This document shows, piece after piece, positions 4,306-49,978 of a stretch of DNA of 64,000 bases (position 1 is its first letter; every line of letters starts with the position of its first letter). The DNA lies in the NCBI RefSeq assembly GCF_036365525.1, contig NC_090414.1:20793846-20857845 (forward strand), given 5' to 3'. The stretch is from Heterodontus francisci. Lineage: Eukaryota. Both the position numbers and the translations under genes were made by a program. Under the pieces are notes generated by a model, which saw nothing but the letters and a program-made list of their open reading frames with translations, was not told the origin of the DNA and did no database searches.

Positions 4306-6789
4306 TTACTTGGTGGCAAATACAGGGGGCGGGGCCAAAGTGACCAACCGGTACCACAACATGGAGGCCACCAGTTGGTTTATGACCAACGCTCGGCCCC
4401 TGTAGGAAAGCACTCGGAGCAGTCCTGTCCAGCGCCCCAGCCGAGCGGTGACTTTCGCCTCCAACTCCTGCCAGTTTGCCGGCCAGGCTTCCTCAGCGGG
4501 GCTAAGGTGGACTCCCAGATAGAGGAGGTGCGTGGTGCTCCACGCAAAAGGTGTCATCTCCTCCGGCAGGGAGTCCACCCGCCACTGACCAACCAGGAGT
4601 CCGGAACATTTCTCCCAATTGATCCTCGCGGAGGACGCGGCAGAAAAGGTCTGCTGGCAGTCGCGCATCCTCCGCAAGTCAACGGGATCTGTGATTGCGA
4701 GGAGCACGTCGTCGGCGTAAGCCGAGAGGACGACCCGCATGGCCGGCTCGCGCAGAGCCAATCCCGTCAACCTCCTGCGAAGCAGGCACAGGAAGGGCTC
4801 CACGCAGATGGTATACAATTGGCCGGACATGGGGCACCCCTGACGCACTCCTCTCCCAAATCGAAGGGGCGCCGTCAAGGACCCGTTAACTTTGACTAGA
4901 CACTCTGCGGCGGCGTATAAAAGTCGGACCCGGGCCACGAAATGCGGCCCGAGTCCGAAAGCGCGCAGAGTCCCGAAAAGGTAATCGTGATCCACCCTGT
5001 CGAACGCCTTCTCCTGATCGAGGGAGAGAAAGGCGACCGACTGACCAGTCCTCTGGGAAAGATGGATCAGGTCCTGGACCAGGTGGATGTTGTCCTGGAT
5101 GGACCGGCCTGGGACCGTGTAGGACTGGTCGGGGTGGATCATGTGGGCCAGCACGGAGCCCAGGCGGGTAGACATAGCCCGGGCAAAGATCTTATAATCC
5201 GTGCTGAGGAGGGAGACCGGACGCCAGTTTTTAAGCAGGCGGAGATCGCCCCTCTTCGGCAGCAGGACGATGACCGCCCTGCGCCACGAGAGGGGCATCT
5301 CCCCGGTCGCCAGGCTTTCCCCCAGGACCCGCGCGTAATCGTCCCCCAGGACGTCCCAGAACGCCCTGAGGAACTCCACGGTCAACCCATCCAGCCCTGG
5401 GGATTTGCCCCTCGAGAGCTGGTGGAGGGCGCCAGTCAGCTCCGCCAACGTGAGCGGAGCCTCCAATCCTTCGGCGCCCTCCGGGCTGACCTGCAGCAGG
5501 TCCTCCCACAAAACTCTGCGCGCATCCTCGCTGGACGGATCCGGAGAGAACAACGCACTGTAATACGTCCGGACCAGGAGGCCCATTCCCTCCGGATCCG
5601 TGATGGAGGATCCGTCGTCGGCCAGCAGCTCGACGAGCTGCTTACGGACCGCCCGCCATTTTTCCAGCGAGTAGAAGAAGGGTGAGGCGCGGTCCAAATC
5701 TTCCAGGATCTGGATCCGCGACCTCACGTACGCGCCTCGGGACGCTATGAGCTGCAGGTCCCTCAGCGCGCCCTTCTTCTCTTTGTACGCCTGCCACAGG
5801 GCCGGGTCCGCGACGGCATGACCGAGGCGGGATTCCAAGTCGAGCACCTCCCTCTCAAGGCGCCCGACCTCGGCTTCCCGCCTCTTGGTCGACCCCTTCG
5901 CGTACTCCTGACAGAAGACGCGGATGTGAGTCTTGCCCACATCCCACCATAGCCTCAAGGAGGGGAAGCCCCCCTGCTTCCTTCTCCAGTCGGCCCAGAA
6001 TCGACAGAACGAGTCCCGAAATCGCTCGTCCTCCAGCAGCCGGTTGTTAAAGTGCCAGTACGCGGACCCCGCCCGCGTACGGAGCGGAGTAAACTCCGCC
6101 CACACCAGGCGGTGGTCCGAGCACGGCACCAGCCGCATGTAGGCCGCCGAAACGCGGGAGACGTACGCCTGCGAAATGTAGAGGCGGTCGATTCGCGACC
6201 CTCCTCCTCCAGACCTCCACGTGAAGTCGCTGGAGTCGGGATGGAGATTCCGCCAGACGTCCACCAAGTTAAGGGAGCTGATCAGTCCCCTCAACTTCTC
6301 CACCGACGCTTGGCCGCGCTGGGGACCGGAGCGATCCCCCACCTCGAGGGTGCAGTTAAAATCCTCCCCGAGGATGATGCACTCGCCGCTATCGATGGAG
6401 CTCAAGAGAGCGGACACTTCTTCAAAGAAGCGCGCTTGCAAAGCGCCGGGCCTGGGCGCGTACACGTTCACAAAGTGGAGCGGCACGCTACCCAGGCGAA
6501 CGGCGAGGTGGAGCAAGCGGCCCGGCACTAGCTCCTTGACCCCCAAGATCTCCGGCTGAAAAGTCGGGGCCAACAAGATAGCCACCCCACTAGAAATAGG
6601 GGTGAGGTGACTCATGTAGACCCCACCCTGCCACTCCAGGAGCCAGGTGGCTTCGTCTCCCGGAACGGTGTGGGTTTCCTGCAGAAAGCTCACCGCGTAT
6701 CTCCCTTCCCTGAGGACTGAGAGATTATGAAATCTGCGGTGAGCCCCTCTGCTGCCGTTGATGTTGAGGCTGGCTATGGTTATCTTCAT
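4306..6789 (-). CDS. Tx1 ORF2 endonuclease/reverse transcriptase, 827 aa, C-terminally truncated
   Basis: APE motifs SLNING, LQETH, SGVAILL, EDFN, SRIDR, SDH; RT motifs PGLDG, KNWRPVSLL, LDQEKAFDRV, GVRQGCPMS, YADD; stop codon supplied by satellite junction. Confidence 0.93.
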   Translation of the reverse strand: MKITIASLNINGSRGAHRRFHNLSVLREGRYAVSFLQETHTVPGDEATWLLEWQGGVYMSHLTPISSGVAILLAPTFQPEILGVKELVPGRLLHLAVRLGSVPLHFVNVYAPRPGALQARFFEEVSALLSSIDSGECIILGEDFNCTLEVGDRSGPQRGQASVEKLRGLISSLNLVDVWRNLHPDSSDFTWRSGGGGSRIDRLYISQAYVSRVSAAYMRLVPCSDHRLVWAEFTPLRTRAGSAYWHFNNRLLEDERFRDSFCRFWADWRRKQGGFPSLRLWWDVGKTHIRVFCQEYAKGSTKRREAEVGRLEREVLDLESRLGHAVADPALWQAYKEKKGALRDLQLIASRGAYVRSRIQILEDLDRASPFFYSLEKWRAVRKQLVELLADDGSSITDPEGMGLLVRTYYSALFSPDPSSEDARRVLWEDLLQVSPEGAEGLEAPLTLAELTGALHQLSRGKSPGLDGLTVEFLRAFWDVLGDDYARVLGESLATGEMPLSWRRAVIVLLPKRGDLRLLKNWRPVSLLSTDYKIFARAMSTRLGSVLAHMIHPDQSYTVPGRSIQDNIHLVQDLIHLSQRTGQSVAFLSLDQEKAFDRVDHDYLFGTLRAFGLGPHFVARVRLLYAAAECLVKVNGSLTAPLRFGRGVRQGCPMSGQLYTICVEPFLCLLRRRLTGLALREPAMRVVLSAYADDVLLAITDPVDLRRMRDCQQTFSAASSARINWEKCSGLLVGQWRVDSLPEEMTPFAWSTTHLLYLGVHLSPAEEAWPANWQELEAKVTARLGRWTGLLRVLSYRGRALVINQLVASMLWYRLVTLAPPPVFATK

Positions 6790-9524
6790 GTCAAAGGTAA
6801 TTAAAACCCGTCACAAACACCTCACTGTGAGGAGGGAGTGGAAGTGCACCTGGCCCTCCACTCCCCCAGCAACCCATTGAGGAACACATTAAAACGGCGC
6901 CTCTCAACCAGTTTCACGTCCGCGCGCTTGCCCGTTATCTTAAGGGCGGCACGGACGGACTGTATGATCAGCGCCAGATTCGACCAACGGTCGAGGGCCA
7001 GCTGAACTTTATTGCGGCAACCTCTGCAAGCCGCGAGGAAATCCCGGAGTTCCGCCGTGGGGATGAGAGGAGATTCGGTGGGAGGCACGAGGGACTCCAC
7101 CACCTCACTGGCGATGGAATCAAGATCATCCTCCGTGCCCCGCACCGAATCCCCATCCTCCTCCGGGTCGTCACCGCCAGCGGCCGACACATCCACCACA
7201 CACTGTGGGGCGGACGTCCCGGCCACGCCAGCTGGTCCCGCCTCCGTCACGATCCCACCCCCAGGATCAATGGCGGAGGAGTCCTCTCTGGGTTCTATTG
7301 TGAAACTGGAGCCTGTAGGCACCAGCGGCTCAGGAACCCCCTCCACCTCCGTCCCCAGGCCAATGAGTGGTCCAGGGGAGACAGAAGTTCCGGACTCCGG
7401 GAAACCAGCCGGAGCCGAGACTTGAGGCGGCGAGAGGAGGCCATCTCCTGCTCCGCCAGCGCCCACAGGCCCAGCAGATGGGGCAGCATTCTCAGTGATA
7501 ACTGGGTCGGGGGTCTCCATGTTGGTGGTGGACTCCGGCTGGGAGGCCCGACCCTCTGGGGCCTCGCCCTCCCCTTCATTCAGGACACCCGACCCAGTAG
7601 CAGTGGCAGAATGGGCAGCTTCCCCAGGCTCCCCCACCACAAGCAGGGCCCCACTTACTCCTTCAGGAGGGGCCTCATGTACCGGGGCCATCCCCTCCCC
7701 TCCATCCTGAGGAATAGGGAGCACCTGCCCGGACTTTGCAGCCTTGGTGGTGGCGGTAGGGGAAACCTGGGGACCCGAAACAGGAGACAGCTCCCCTCCA
7801 ACAGATGGGCCCTGCGCCTCAGGGCCCCTTGTTACCTCTGTGGAGGGGTGCCTTCTCCTCTTTTTCCCAGTTGTGTGCGGAGGCTCAGAGACCTCCATAT
7901 CATCAGAGGCCTCCACCTCCACACTCTCCTTTTTTTTATTCACCCTGGGCATGAGCCCAGCCCTGGGGCAAGTTGACTTCCCGAGATCGGGCCTTGGGCT
8001 GAGCTCAGGCTCGGGTAGTGTCACGATATCCAGGGGACGCGCCTCTCGATGTTTATTCCTCCTCCGCGCCTTCCTTCCACTTGGACGGTCACCCCCCTCC
8101 CTGCCGGAGGCTGTGGTTTTCACAGTGTAGTGGGGGTGGGAGGAGGTGCAGCGTCGCCACCCTGGGCCGCTGAGTTGGAGTTGGCAGCCGGGAGGTTGGG
8201 GCAGTTCTTACGAACATGCCCCATCCCCTTACAGACATGGCACCGCACCCCGTCCAAGGTCCAGAAGACGCGGTAGGCCGTCCCCTGGAATTCTACATTA
8301 AAGTGGCCCTCTGTCACCTCCTCCCGCGCCAGCTGCATGAATAACTGGCAGCGGAAGGAGTACACATGTCGGAGGCTGTTCTCCCGAAGACCGAGCGGGA
8401 CTGGGGTGAGCCCCGTCTTTACCTCCCCCAGATGGTGCAGGTGGGGAAGGAGGAGCTCACCAGGAATGAAGGGCGGGACATTGGATAAAATGAGCCTTTG
8501 CGCAGTGGCCTCCAGGGGGTCCACTGGCAGAAAGGTCCCGCCCACGGTGAGCCCCTTGCTCAGAGCCAGGGACACCGCCCGCTCGGTCTTCAAAAAGAAC
8601 ACAGCCTTCCCATACATCTTTGAGGCCACAACAATGGCCGAGGGGCCGACAACCACGGCCATTGCCTTAACGCAGGCCTCAATAGACATTTTGGGGTGGG
8701 GATAGCTCTTCACCCCATGGCTGCATGTCAACAATTTAAAGGGTGACGGGGCCACGTGGGCAGCCACAGAAGCTGCAGCTGCGTAGGTAGTAGAGGGCCC
8801 GGCCACCGGTGATGAAGGGCTTGCCATGGGTCCAAGAGCTAAACCCACCCCAAATTGTGGACTTGCACACCAAATATCAGCGATTTAACTGAAAATATTG
8901 AATATATATTAAAGACAAACAAACAAACAACAAATTAGTGGAGAGGCTGAGGTAATAGAGGAGAGGCAAAGGCAGGCTGGAAGGGATGACTTGCTTTCTG
9001 GAGGTGGTGCTCACAGTACACTTAAAACAGTCTTTGAAGTTGGTCTTCCGGTCTTCTGGTTGGGGGAGTCGTCTTCACCTGGGTCAGCTGAAGCTGCCCA
9101 GGCACTATCTATCCCCTTCCGTCTGTTTAGCTGGGCAGCTTCAGCTGACCCAGGCTTGGCAATTGGGGTGGGGAGGGAGCTTCCCTGTGTGCTTGTGCAG
9201 CAGCACAGATTCCTGTTGAATTGGCAGCCCCACCCCTTGTTGTTCCAGCCACTTGTTCTTCCCCCAACAGTCCAAAGTAAATTACTGGTGTTCAGCACCC
9301 ACCTCCAGACAAAGCCTTGTATCCAACAAAAAAAGAATGTCGCTTTCTTCTCTTTTAAAGGTGATTGTTGTTGGAGTTTTCCTCTGCTTGTTGGTAGCTG
9401 CTCTCCCTTGCTCAGTGCAGCTCCTCTCTCCACCTCTGCAACCTCCAACTGTCACCAGCACTCTCAGCTACACCTCGTTGAGGCTCTCAACACTCAGGCT
9501 TCCCAAATCAGAGAGCAGCCAATC
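4311..9524 (-). mobile_element. Tx1-clade (L1 group) non-LTR retrotransposon; 5' end present, 3' part lost; both ends join the 70-bp satellite
   Basis: ~680-bp 5' UTR, ORF1 with CCHC knuckle, ORF2 APE+RT; satellite at 4289-4310 and from 9528. Confidence 0.92.
6822..8848 (-). pseudogene. Tx1 ORF1 (gag-like), split by a frameshift near 8123-8130
   Basis: 242-aa ORF with CHVCKGMGHVRKNC zinc knuckle overlaps a 433-aa ORF in another frame that ends 32 bp before the ORF2 ATG. Confidence 0.8.
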
Positions 9525-9527
9525 GCA

Positions 9528-9598
9528 GTGCTGTACCTGTCCTGGGAGTGTTTGATGGGGACAGTGTCGAGGGAGCTTTACTCTGTATCTAACCCCCG
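9528..9598 (+). repeat. Single 70-bp satellite unit between insertions
   Basis: GTGCTGTACCTGTCC...TCTAACCCCCG. Confidence 0.95.
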
Positions 9599-9687
9599 TT
9601 TTTTTTTTTTTTCTGACTGCAGCACTGTCAGCTGCACCTCGTTGAGGCACTCAGCACTCAGTATTCCCAATCAGAGAGGAGCCAATC
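9599..9687 (-). mobile_element. Short retroposed copy of a Tx1 5' leader with A14 tail
   Basis: T14 at 9599-9612, then 75 bp resembling 9455-9524 (CACCTCGTTGAGG..CACTCAG..TCCCAA..TCAGAGAG..GCCAATC). Confidence 0.75.
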
Positions 9688-9731
9688 CCCGTTTTTTTTT
9701 TAGAGGGAGCTTTACTCTGTATCTAACCCCG

Positions 9732-10610
9732 TTTTTTTTTTATATAAGGTGACCTTTCTACCCCAGGCCCCTTTTATATTTTTCACGTCGAGGGGGCCTT
9801 TATTCCTCAGGCCCCCTTTATGTACATATTTACAGTTTTAAAATAACTTTATTAAAACCAGATAAATAAACAAAAAGCTCAAATTAAAATGCCATTCTCG
9901 GCGTCGACAATGCACTCCAGTCCCTGCGGTGCCCACCGGTCGCGGAAGGCCTCAAGCGTACCGGCGGACACCGCATGCTCCTTTTCCAGGGACACCCGGG
10001 CGCGAACGTAACCGCGGAAGAGGGGCAGGCAATCGGGGAGGACGGACCCCACGACGGCCCGCAACCTGGACCTGTGAATTGCCACCTTGGCCAGGCCCAG
10101 GAGCAGACCGACGAGGAGATCCTCCTCCCGGCCCAAGCCCCTCCGCACCGGGTGCCCAAAGATCAGGAGCGTGGGACTGAAGTGCAGCCAGAATTTGAGG
10201 AGCAGCCCCTTCAGATACTCAAATAGGGGCTGCAACCTCGCACACTCCGTATAAATGTGGAACACGGACTCGTCCAGGACGCAGAAAGGCCCCGAAACCC
10301 TCCTCGGGAGCCGGTCCCGCACAACCCGAGCCGCCTCTCGGAAATGCCCTCCGTGCCATTCCAATCGGCGCGGAGGGGTTTCCTGTACGGGCTGCTCCTG
10401 CACACTCTCCACTTCCTCGCCCTCGTCAGCCGGCCGGACACGCCCTGGCGGTCCATGTTGCCATCTGGCGGCGAGGGGAAACCCCGATGGAGGTCTCTCT
10501 CCGCGGGAGTCTTCCCCCTTTACATAGGGGACCTGGGGTGGAGGGTGCTGCACAGAGCAGTCCCGTGCAATAGGCTTTTAAGTAGGTTCACGGACTCCCA
10601 GGCCACCTGT
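9732..10610 (-). mobile_element. 5'-truncated, 5'-inverted Tx1 copy (ORF2 C-terminus, 3' UTR, poly(A))
   Basis: T10 at 9732-9741; minus strand PFCVLDESVFHIYTEC..NGILI* from 10289; plus strand 10290-10610 ..GDLGWRVLHRAVPCNRLL..SQATC; flanking CTGTATCTAACCCC(C)G duplication. Confidence 0.88.
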
Positions 10611-11100
10611 ATCTAACCCCCGTGCTGTACCTGTCCTGGGGAGTGTTTGATGGGGACAGTGTAGAGGGAGCTTTACTCTGTATCTAACCCCCGTGCTGTA
10701 CCTGTCCTGGGAGTGTTTGATGGGGACAGTGTAGAGGGAGCTTTACTCTGTATCTAACCCCCGTACTGTACCTGTCCTGGGGAGTGTTTGATGGGGACAG
10801 TGTAGAGGGAGCTTTACTCTGTATCTAACCCCCGTACTGTACCTGTCCTGGGGAGTGTTTGATGGGGACAGTGTAGAGGGAGCTTTACTCTGTATCTAAC
10901 CCCGTACTGTACCTGTCCTGGGAGTGTTTGATGGGGACAGTGTAGAGGGAGCTTTACTCTGTATCTAACCCCCGTGCTGTACCTGTCCTGGGAGTGTTTG
11001 ATGGGGACAGTGTAGAGGGAGCTTTACTCTGTATCTAACCCCGTACTGTACCTGTCCTGGGAGTGTTTGATGGGGACAGTGTAGAGGGAGCTTTACTCTG
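10607..11100 (+). repeat. 70-bp satellite array (~7 units)
   Basis: Same unit as 1-935. Confidence 0.97.
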
Positions 11101-24097: not shown

Positions 24098-24432
24098 TTG
24101 ATGGGGACAGTGTAGAGGGAGCTTTACTCTGTATCTAACCCAGTGCTGTACCTGTCCTGGGAGTGTTTGATGGGGGACAGTGTAGAGGGAGCTTTACTCT
24201 GTATCTAACCCCGTACTGTACCTGTCCTGGGAGTGTTTGATGGGGGACAGTGTAGAGGGAGCTTTACTCTGTATCTAACCCCGTACTGTACCTGTCCTGC
24301 GAGTGTTTGATGGGGGACAGTGTAGAGGGAGCTTTACTCTGTATCTAACCCCTGTGCTGTACCTGTCCTGGGAGTGTTTGATGGGGACAGTGTAGAGGGA
24401 GCTTTACTCTGTATCTAACCCAGTGCTGTACC
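24098..24432 (+). repeat. 70-bp satellite array (~4.5 units) in FIBP intron
   Basis: Same unit; no insert seen. Confidence 0.95.
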
Positions 24433-30290: not shown

Positions 30291-31716
30291 AGCTCCCTCT
30301 ATACTGTCCCCATCAAACACTCCCAGGACAGGTACAGTACGGGGGTTAGATACAGAGTAAAGCTCCCTCTATACTGTCCCCATCAAACACTCCCAGGACA
30401 GGTACAGCACAGGGTTAGATACAGAGTAAAGCTCCCTCTATACTGTCCCCATCAAACACTCCCCAGGACAGGTACAGTACGGGGGTTAGATACAGAGTAA
30501 AGCTCCCTCTACACTGTCCCCATCAAACACTCCCAGGACAGATACAGTACGGGGGTTAGATACAGAGTAAAGCTCCCTCTACACTGTCCCCATCAAACAC
30601 TCCCAGGACAGATACAGCACGGGGGTTAGATACAGAGTAAAGCTCCCTCTACACTGACCCCATCAAATACTCCCAGGACAGGTACAGTACGGGGTTAGAT
30701 ACAGAGTAAAGCTCCCTCTATACTGTCCCCATAAAACACTCCCCAGGACAGGTACAACACGGGGGTTAGATACAGAGTAAAGCTCCCTCTATACTGTCCC
30801 CATCAAACACTCCCCAGGACAGGTACAACACGGGGGTTAGATACAGAGTAAAGCTCCCTCTACACTGTCCCCATCAAACACTCCCAGGACAGGTACAGTA
30901 CGGGGGTTAGATACAGAGTAAAGCTCCCTCTATACTGTCCCCATCAAACACTCCCAGGACAGGTACAGCACAGGGTTAGATACAGAGTAAAGCTCCCTCT
31001 ATACTGTCCCCATCAAACACTCCCCAGGACAGGTACAGCACAGGGTTAGATACAGAGTAAAGCTCCCTCTATACTGTCCCCATCAAACACTCCCAGGACA
31101 GGTACAGTACGGGGGTTAGATACAGAGTAAAGCTCCCTCTATACTGTCCCCATCAAACACTCCCAGGACAGGTACAGCACAGGGTTAGATACAGAGTAAA
31201 GCTCCCTCTATACTGTCCCCATCAAACACTCCCCAGGACAGGTACAGCACGGGGGTTAGATACAGAGTAAAGCTCCCTCTACACTGTCCCCATCAAACAC
31301 TCCCCAGGACAGGTACAGTACGGGGGTTAGATACAGAGTAAAGCTCCCTCTATACTGTCCCCATCAAACACTCCCCAGGACAGGTACAGCACGGGGTTAG
31401 ATACAGAGTAAAGCTCCCTCTACACTGTCCCCATCAAACACTCCCCAGGACAGGTACAGCACGGGGTTAGATACAGAGTGAAGCTCCCTCTATACTGTCC
31501 CCATCAAACTCTCCCCAGGACAGGTACAGCACGGGGTTAGATACAGAGTAAAGCTCCCTCTACACTGTCCCCATCAAACACTCCCCAGGACAGGTACAAC
31601 ACGGGGGTTAGATACAGAGTAAAGCTCCCTCTATACTGTCCCCATCAAACACTCCCAGGATAGGTACAGCACTGGGAGTTGGAAAGAAAAGAAAAAAAAA
31701 AAGAAACGGGGTTAGA
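30291..31716 (-). repeat. 70-bp satellite array (~19 units, reverse orientation) with terminal A-tailed insert
   Basis: Reverse complement of unit; insert ~31673-31706. Confidence 0.96.
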
Positions 31717-49331: not shown

Positions 49332-49462
49332 GTACAGTCAGTCCTCCTCCATTACTCAGCCCCTGATTTCAACCTAGATTTCTAAATGAGTTCTGAAAGG
49401 ATGTCGGTAAAATGGTCATGTTGAACTGTACCTCATTGGACCTCGCCAAGACTGTCCATCCG

Positions 49463-49685
49463 CATCAAACACTCCCAGGACAGGTACAGCACGGGGGTTA
49501 GATACAGAGTAAAGCTCCTCTACACTGTCCCATCAAACACTCCCAGGACAGGTACAGCACGGGGGTTAGATACAGAGTAAAGCTCCCTCTACACTGTCCC
49601 ATCAAACACGCCCAGGACAGGTACAGCACAAGTGTAGTATCTGTTCTTAAAAAAAAAACAGGGGTTAGATACAGAGTAAAGCTCC
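49463..49685 (-). repeat. 70-bp satellite mini-array (reverse) carrying a U2-derived insert
   Basis: ~2.7 units in EFEMP2 intron. Confidence 0.92.
49629..49658 (+). pseudogene. Retroposed U2 snRNA fragment (about nt 28-48) with A10 tail
   Basis: CAAGTGTAGTATCTGTTCTTA matches the conserved vertebrate U2 sequence as recalled (..AAGAUCAAGUGUAGUAUCUGUUCUUAUC..). Confidence 0.8.
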
Positions 49686-49978
49686 AAAGTTGATGGTGAG
49701 TGTCAGGTGGTTAATGAGGGGAGACGTTCATTGCTGCATTCTGACTCAAGTCCCCGACAGTAACTGGGGTTCCAATGGGGTTTGGGAGATGCACGACAGG
49801 TTGCGGGGAGAAGAGGAGGAGTTAGGAAAGGATTTATCGGGTAACTTTGTGACTGGGCGGTTCATTATTACAGCTGGGAGGGGAGGATCATGTTAATGGC
49901 CACCCCCCCCCCTCCTCCTCTCCACCCCCTGCTTGCTTCCATCCATTCAATGCTACTTTGTGTGTTTTGATGATACAG

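Follow-up and report, generated by a model that had tools for sequence, protein, structure and literature searches.

In a 64,000-nucleotide stretch of the Heterodontus francisci genome (hereafter the window; NC_090414.1, positions 20,793,846 to 20,857,845), we found a 20-nt piece of U2 snRNA with an A10 tail inserted into a satellite, at the very position where a Tx1L-type LINE of the same window begins. The satellite nick site takes in host RNA in trans as a rare by-product, and the U2 piece probably arose when a cellular RNA was copied by accident, an event of a kind already known from mammals. It is most likely inert and we propose no function for it; the branch-point motif within the insert gave no sign of functional relevance.

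On the plus strand, the left half of the target site, GGTACAGCA, is read from the sequence at 49620-49628. It is followed at 49629-49648 by U2 nt 28-47, a 20-mer assigned by its exact identity to U2 genes of this genome and by Rfam alignment, whose first two letters are the first two of the target as well. The A10 tail occupies 49649-49658, its first A being also U2 nt 48, and the right half of the satellite target site, where the array ends, lies at 49659-49685, recognized from its sequence and by comparison with a unit of this variant at 24355 (minus strand) that carries no insert. This is the layout of U2 piece and A10 that the original prediction had drawn for 49621 to 49685; its start was one base late, the correct one being 49620. 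The prediction had also equated a 21-mer with U2 nt ~28-48, which alignment to the species' U2 genes bore out: the longest exact match joins window 49629-49649 to nt 28-48 at 21/21 letters, with own-genome genes on contig C41 as the reference (48 full-length matches scored, 30 fetched). A 21-nt U2 match is expected in the window by chance at 5e-6, and outside the insert no U2 match in the window exceeds 12 nt. For three of the 21 letters the origin is ambiguous, CA being common to the target and the last A to the tail, so that 18 nt of U2 stand beyond ambiguity, with a chance of ~3e-4 calculated by hand with the same formula. Rfam scored the insert weakly (12 bits, E 6) and, at gathering score, gave no match anywhere in the window.

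The A10 is untemplated, since the U2 gene reads otherwise at that point. The only possible target duplication is CA, which is also U2 nt 28-29, and it is at most 2-3 nt long. In the Rfam model, U2 nt 28-46 form an unpaired stretch between two stems. The snRNA-derived sequence, the untemplated A-rich tail and the LINE endonuclease site are three features that the insert shares with group II snRNA processed pseudogenes. We considered target mimicry by U2 nt 28-43 and rejected it, as the likeness of the U2 gene to the target from nt 28 onward is only modest (rank 2-7 of ~180 positions).

The 70-bp satellite forms five arrays in the window, of which the interrupted one covers 49463-49628 on the plus strand (~2.4 units by TRF) and ends in the left half of the Tx1 target. 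A Tx1L-type LINE on the minus strand (4306-9528) starts at the same satellite site and has its ORF2 broken off at the 3' end; next to it, a stack at the same site (9530-10622, minus strand) comprises a 5'-truncated Tx1, an A-tailed satellite piece and an A-tailed Tx1 5' piece. The satellite position of the U2 insert is that of the Tx1 5' end at 9529 and of the A-tailed junctions at 9591 and 9725. The LINE carries endonuclease (PF03372) and reverse transcriptase (PF00078) domains, is 55% identical to Xenopus Tx1L ORF2 (YTX2_XENLA) over 99% of the query, and is 91% identical to a Heterodontus protein over 42% of its length. Its APE-type endonuclease with reverse transcriptase, its target-site preference and its poly(A) end are those of the Tx1 clade. 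Contig C1387 holds Tx1 copies with intact ORF2 frames of 1252 aa, and we infer that the family of the window LINE was the source of the enzyme. Short A-tailed satellite pieces or Tx1 5' pieces also occupy the same site at 31672-31705 and 9590-9730 of the window. The 5' end of Tx1 is similar to the target, and the elements stack in tandem.

The insert lies in sense orientation within a GT-AG intron (49332-49978, plus strand) of a fibulin-family, EFEMP2-like gene recognized by EGF/fibulin-type exons. An insertion in sense within an EFEMP2 intron had been claimed; the orientation and the fibulin-family intron hold, while the gene name draws on these exons, on a weak fibulin-4 match (E 0.0034) that was not top-scoring, and in part on a presumed synteny with CCDC85, a neighbor that appears as a Pfam match in the window. 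Each satellite unit (49480-49626) contains AG/GTACAG, the letters of the real intron donor at 49332 and a conceivable cryptic donor. One sequencing run, guessed to be RNA, covered the intron at a low level that carries no information.

Two retrocopies of the intron piece 49463-49829 exist, each ending in an A tail but at a different point, and the unique intron flank (49686-49829, plus strand) extends to 49789 in the copy on C1387 and to ~49829 in the copy on C43. The C1387 copy carries the same U2 insert and 104 nt of intron flank followed by a new A tail; it is embedded in a Tx1 array, no fibulin exon occurs in the sequence fetched there, and it differs from the window in homopolymers, the U2 insert being identical at both places. 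It is a later retrocopy of the window locus, in which the U2 piece was carried passively. The flank copy on C43 is older (92%) and is bordered on both sides by a duplicated satellite stretch of ~130 nt. We rejected it as an empty allele, as its site is occupied by another short A-tailed insert, not the U2 piece; an empty allele of the window locus was found neither there nor in public sequencing runs, which were swamped by satellite.

The 20-mer alone has 1,991 exact matches in the genome, but together with the A tail it has only two in 6 Gb, namely the window and C1387. A widespread satellite variant or the end of another element, which had been named as what would speak against the prediction, was rejected on this count, and the junction is effectively of single origin. 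A SINE with a U2 head was rejected as well: the other 20-mer matches are a 5.3-kb LINE (all of the first 30 loci) and U2 arrays, and two matches of which one is a passive copy do not constitute a multi-copy family in the manner of SINEU. At C2295:43559-43611, a 17-nt A-tailed insert resembling a Tx1 5' variant ends in the last 8 letters of the U2 piece, an agreement that is probably due to chance; two further candidate loci (L282 and L283) were set aside as probable chance matches.

Next, we characterized what else enters the nick site. Sorted by eye, 101 short inserts comprised 88 satellite pieces, 10 Tx1 5' pieces, one tail only and two instances of the U2 piece. The short satellite inserts were rejected as plain target duplications, as their left and right copies agree in only 20/46 (60 of the 101 loci examined, with a search pattern that fixed the right side), and they are more likely transduced pieces. 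The assembly contains 588 strict A10-satellite junctions; 86 loci among the first 100 provided 89 junctions, which were classified as 42 Tx1 3' ends, 32 satellite, 4 other Tx1 pieces and 11 unassigned. Inspected by eye, these 11 divided into 7 Tx1 or satellite junctions with complex tails and 4 foreign ones (4/89). At C6:2.11 Mb (minus strand), an RPL21 mRNA has left its 3' end, complete with stop codon, AATAAA and poly(A), at the satellite site (E 1e-24); among the three further foreign A-tailed junctions, which gave no Rfam match, one is a 33-bp satellite. Keno sequence occurred at none of the 89 sampled satellite junctions, and one exact pattern for a U1 piece at the satellite left junction gave no matches.

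A targeted left-junction search uncovered another U2 copy, of independent origin, at this satellite site on C35 (~53609866-53610063). This copy is near full length, running from U2 nt 4 to 185 with an A tail, and because its U2 sequence continues past nt 53 it comes from a U2 gene. Compared with the nearer U2 type, 18 of its 41 A are read as G, with 4 other changes (Fisher p 3e-10 for the A-to-G excess), while the adjoining Tx1 and satellite are, taken as a whole, free of this bias, a pattern that fits ADAR hyper-editing of the RNA template. A 21-nt diagnostic word of this copy is single-copy in the genome. Among the literature matches listed, no title concerned hyper-edited retrocopies.

U2 sequence is also spread through this genome by a second LINE. 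The first 30 of the 1,991 matches to the 20-mer are dispersed copies of a 5.3-kb two-ORF element headed by U2 nt 1-53, a head that is often slightly 5'-shortened; in some older copies the head is longer, reaching nt 59-63. The U2 head is followed by a U1-derived stretch, which scored above all 500 shuffles in 5/5 copies. The arrangement is that of Keno: the element inserts in U2 genes at the Keno site, its 3' end adjoins U2 nt 37-39 in 8 of 26 loci, and an entire copy lies within a U2 gene of the C41 array (C41:6.3-10.7 Mb). We call the family Keno-like on these sequence features; a Keno flank motif is given in the available text of PMC4640811. In C41 there are two U2 gene types that differ in promoters and 3' halves, one of them forming a 577-bp tandem array in both orientations. 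In 5 of 14 long Keno-like copies, flanking sequence proper to that copy is clearly duplicated over 10-22 nt. Only 118 of the 955 exact head junctions genome-wide lie behind a U2 promoter end, and therefore most Keno-like copies are off target, hundreds of them full-length. Keno read-through copies carrying U2 nt 38-56, 38-130 and 38-132 with a second A tail show that tails get added inside U2 sequence in this genome, and A-tailed U2 pieces with still other ends (nt 19-44 and 33-95) exist elsewhere in it.

Our favored explanation, which we hold with slightly better than even confidence, is a one-off event in which the Tx1 ORF2 protein reverse-transcribed, in trans, a U2-promoter transcript that ended at nt 47/48 and already bore an A tail. 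A transcript of a U2 gene or of a Keno-interrupted U2 gene, two donors that are indistinguishable here, would have been shortened and given an oligo(A) tail as a decay substrate. Tx1 ORF2 would then have nicked the satellite and primed on the tail, cDNA synthesis would have ended at nt 28-30, immediately 3' of U2 stem-loop I, and the join would have been closed via the 2-nt CA common to the target; the second retrocopy of the intron would later have carried the piece along. The original prediction had proposed exactly such an oligoadenylated decay intermediate copied in trans by Tx1. Its trans component is supported because the nick site is the same and because an independent second U2 copy and an RPL21 mRNA end have entered it; the decay intermediate is the likeliest reading only. 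Both U2 events at the satellite are without any Tx1 3' sequence (2/2) and a tail-only insert is rare (1/101), which argues for a template that was already tailed. Against this, a single event cannot reveal the origin of its tail, and the 3' end falls at the 5' foot of stem IIa, an easy spot for a template switch and one at which no exonuclease pause would be expected. The merely modest likeness of U2 to the target from nt 28 onward and the failure to find an empty allele of the locus count against it as well. Human data also weigh on this side, at least in the accessible parts of the reports: truncated U2 is described as uridylated (PMC7293007), oligoadenylated truncated U2/5S templates were sought and not found (PMC5322556), and poly(A) U2 pseudogenes amount to 0% (PMC4476161).

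For the same kind of structure an early template switch has been proposed in the accessible text of PMC4476161, and here ORF2 might have gone no further than the poly(A) of the Tx1 RNA before jumping to single-stranded nt 28-48 of U2 or of a Keno head. The end at the edge of the unpaired region with one A of microhomology would suit such a jump, as would the repeated 5' addition of U1/U2 pieces described for Tx1-clade elements (PMC4494074, available text) and the U1 piece in the local Keno-like head. We nevertheless consider it a minority possibility, given that Tx1 3' sequence is found at neither satellite-site U2 event (0/2), that tail-only inserts are so rare, and that the one exact U1 pattern had no match at left junctions. 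We are a shade more doubtful about a long Keno read-through RNA that was polyadenylated in a downstream U2, within a tandem Keno or a U2 array, and captured with extreme 5' truncation. The read-through copies tailed inside U2, the 118 heads behind the U2 promoter end and three tandem Keno junctions with an A tail directly before U2 nt 26-29 (a start selected by the search pattern) make such donors conceivable; however, they are few beside U2 itself, the 89 satellite junctions are free of Keno, and the second U2 insert stems from a U2 gene. No locus was found at which a satellite Tx1 had entered U2 at nt 28, and read-through from such a copy was rejected: all 3 loci with an element upstream of U2 nt 26-29 are Keno.

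An evolutionary link to Keno, which had been offered as an alternative, fares far worse. If the satellite Tx1 descended from Keno, or if the piece were a fixed part of a satellite variant or element end, it would be a relic, and both elements are indeed Tx1-clade-like; crocodilian Tx1-Mar clusters with Keno and has moved to new targets (PMC4494074, as far as its available text goes). Copy number largely refutes this reading. In addition, the Keno-like ORF2 is 32% identical to that of the satellite Tx1 and 29% to Tx1L, against the 55% between the satellite element and Tx1L; Keno 3' flanks begin at nt 38/39 rather than 28, and the fragment extends across the Keno cut site and does not begin at it; and no satellite Tx1 stands upstream of U2 nt 26-29 in the 3 loci found. 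We give it the least credence of all. Keno is thus not the ancestor of the satellite element's targeting, and it is a possible second source of RNA with U2 nt 28-48. Also very improbable is an origin by DNA-level repair, by chance drift of a satellite piece or by misassembly. The left junction is spanned by none of the contigs listed, and the homopolymer differences between the window and C1387 might hint at an artefact; yet the identical insert is assembled at two places, and a same-sample contig ends at 49789, where window and C1387 diverge. Chance drift is countered by its probability (5e-6 to 3e-4), and a repair patch by the untemplated A tail at the nick site, which is a signature of retrotransposition.

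These findings add evidence that a sequence-specific Tx1 element mobilizes host RNAs in trans. As all events fall at one recognizable address, it is feasible to tally their ends and set them beside RNA 3'-end data, a comparison that bears on the published and unsettled question of tailed template versus template switch. More tentatively, the nick site could be a fixed-address trap at which whatever germline RNA bears an A tail is written in by a Tx1L-type enzyme, its inserts forming a fossil archive of RNA surveillance, with shortened, tailed and ADAR-hyper-edited U2 among them, left by a natural site-specific writer with loose choice of cargo. Rampant, U2-promoter-driven Keno may supply aberrant U2-headed RNAs to the satellite Tx1. 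The hyper-edited U2 retrocopy and the Keno-like family with its U2+U1 head are of more interest than the U2 piece itself. Our search, with most subscription literature and Repbase lying outside it, found no publication on the shark satellite Tx1 element or on a shark Keno.

Both the class of insert and the decay-intermediate idea are already published: the available text of Doucet et al. 2015 (PMC4476161) describes 3'-truncated, poly(A)-tailed snRNA pseudogenes and both tail models for mammalian L1. Like those group II pseudogenes, the insert combines a 3'-truncated snRNA, an A tail and a LINE endonuclease site. Unlike them, it was probably made in a cartilaginous fish by a site-specific Tx1L-type element rather than by L1 in mammals; it is also 5'-truncated and only 20 nt long, and any target duplication is no more than 2-3 nt; and it derives from U2, for which this class amounted to 0% in human. 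It resembles the tailless retropseudogenes of PMC5322556, as far as these are described in its accessible part, in having its 3' end in a single-stranded region of U2, and differs in being tailed and in lacking a complementarity-primed 3' junction; PMC4378196, mainly on U6 in its available part, adds little. With Keno, as presented in the available text of PMC4494074 and PMC4640811, it shares the region of U2, and the Keno-like family is abundant here as a possible RNA donor; the cut site and the ORF2 lineage differ, and the insert lies in a satellite with U2 nt 28-47, whereas Keno lies in U2 with a 3' flank from ~nt 38. The closest parallel in setting is SINEU and Tx1-Mar of crocodilians (Kojima 2015, PMC4494074), where, in the text available, U2/U1-derived A-tailed RNA, a Tx1-clade element and a preferred repeat target likewise come together, and where Tx1-driven mobilization of U1/U2-derived SINEs was deduced from shared targets only. 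The succession of a U2 head and a U1 stretch in the Keno-like family is also as in SINEU and Tx1-Mar, and Fig. 1B and the supplements of that study may bear on such heads. The SINEU families number 137-7,700 copies, in contrast to the single event and its one passive copy here.
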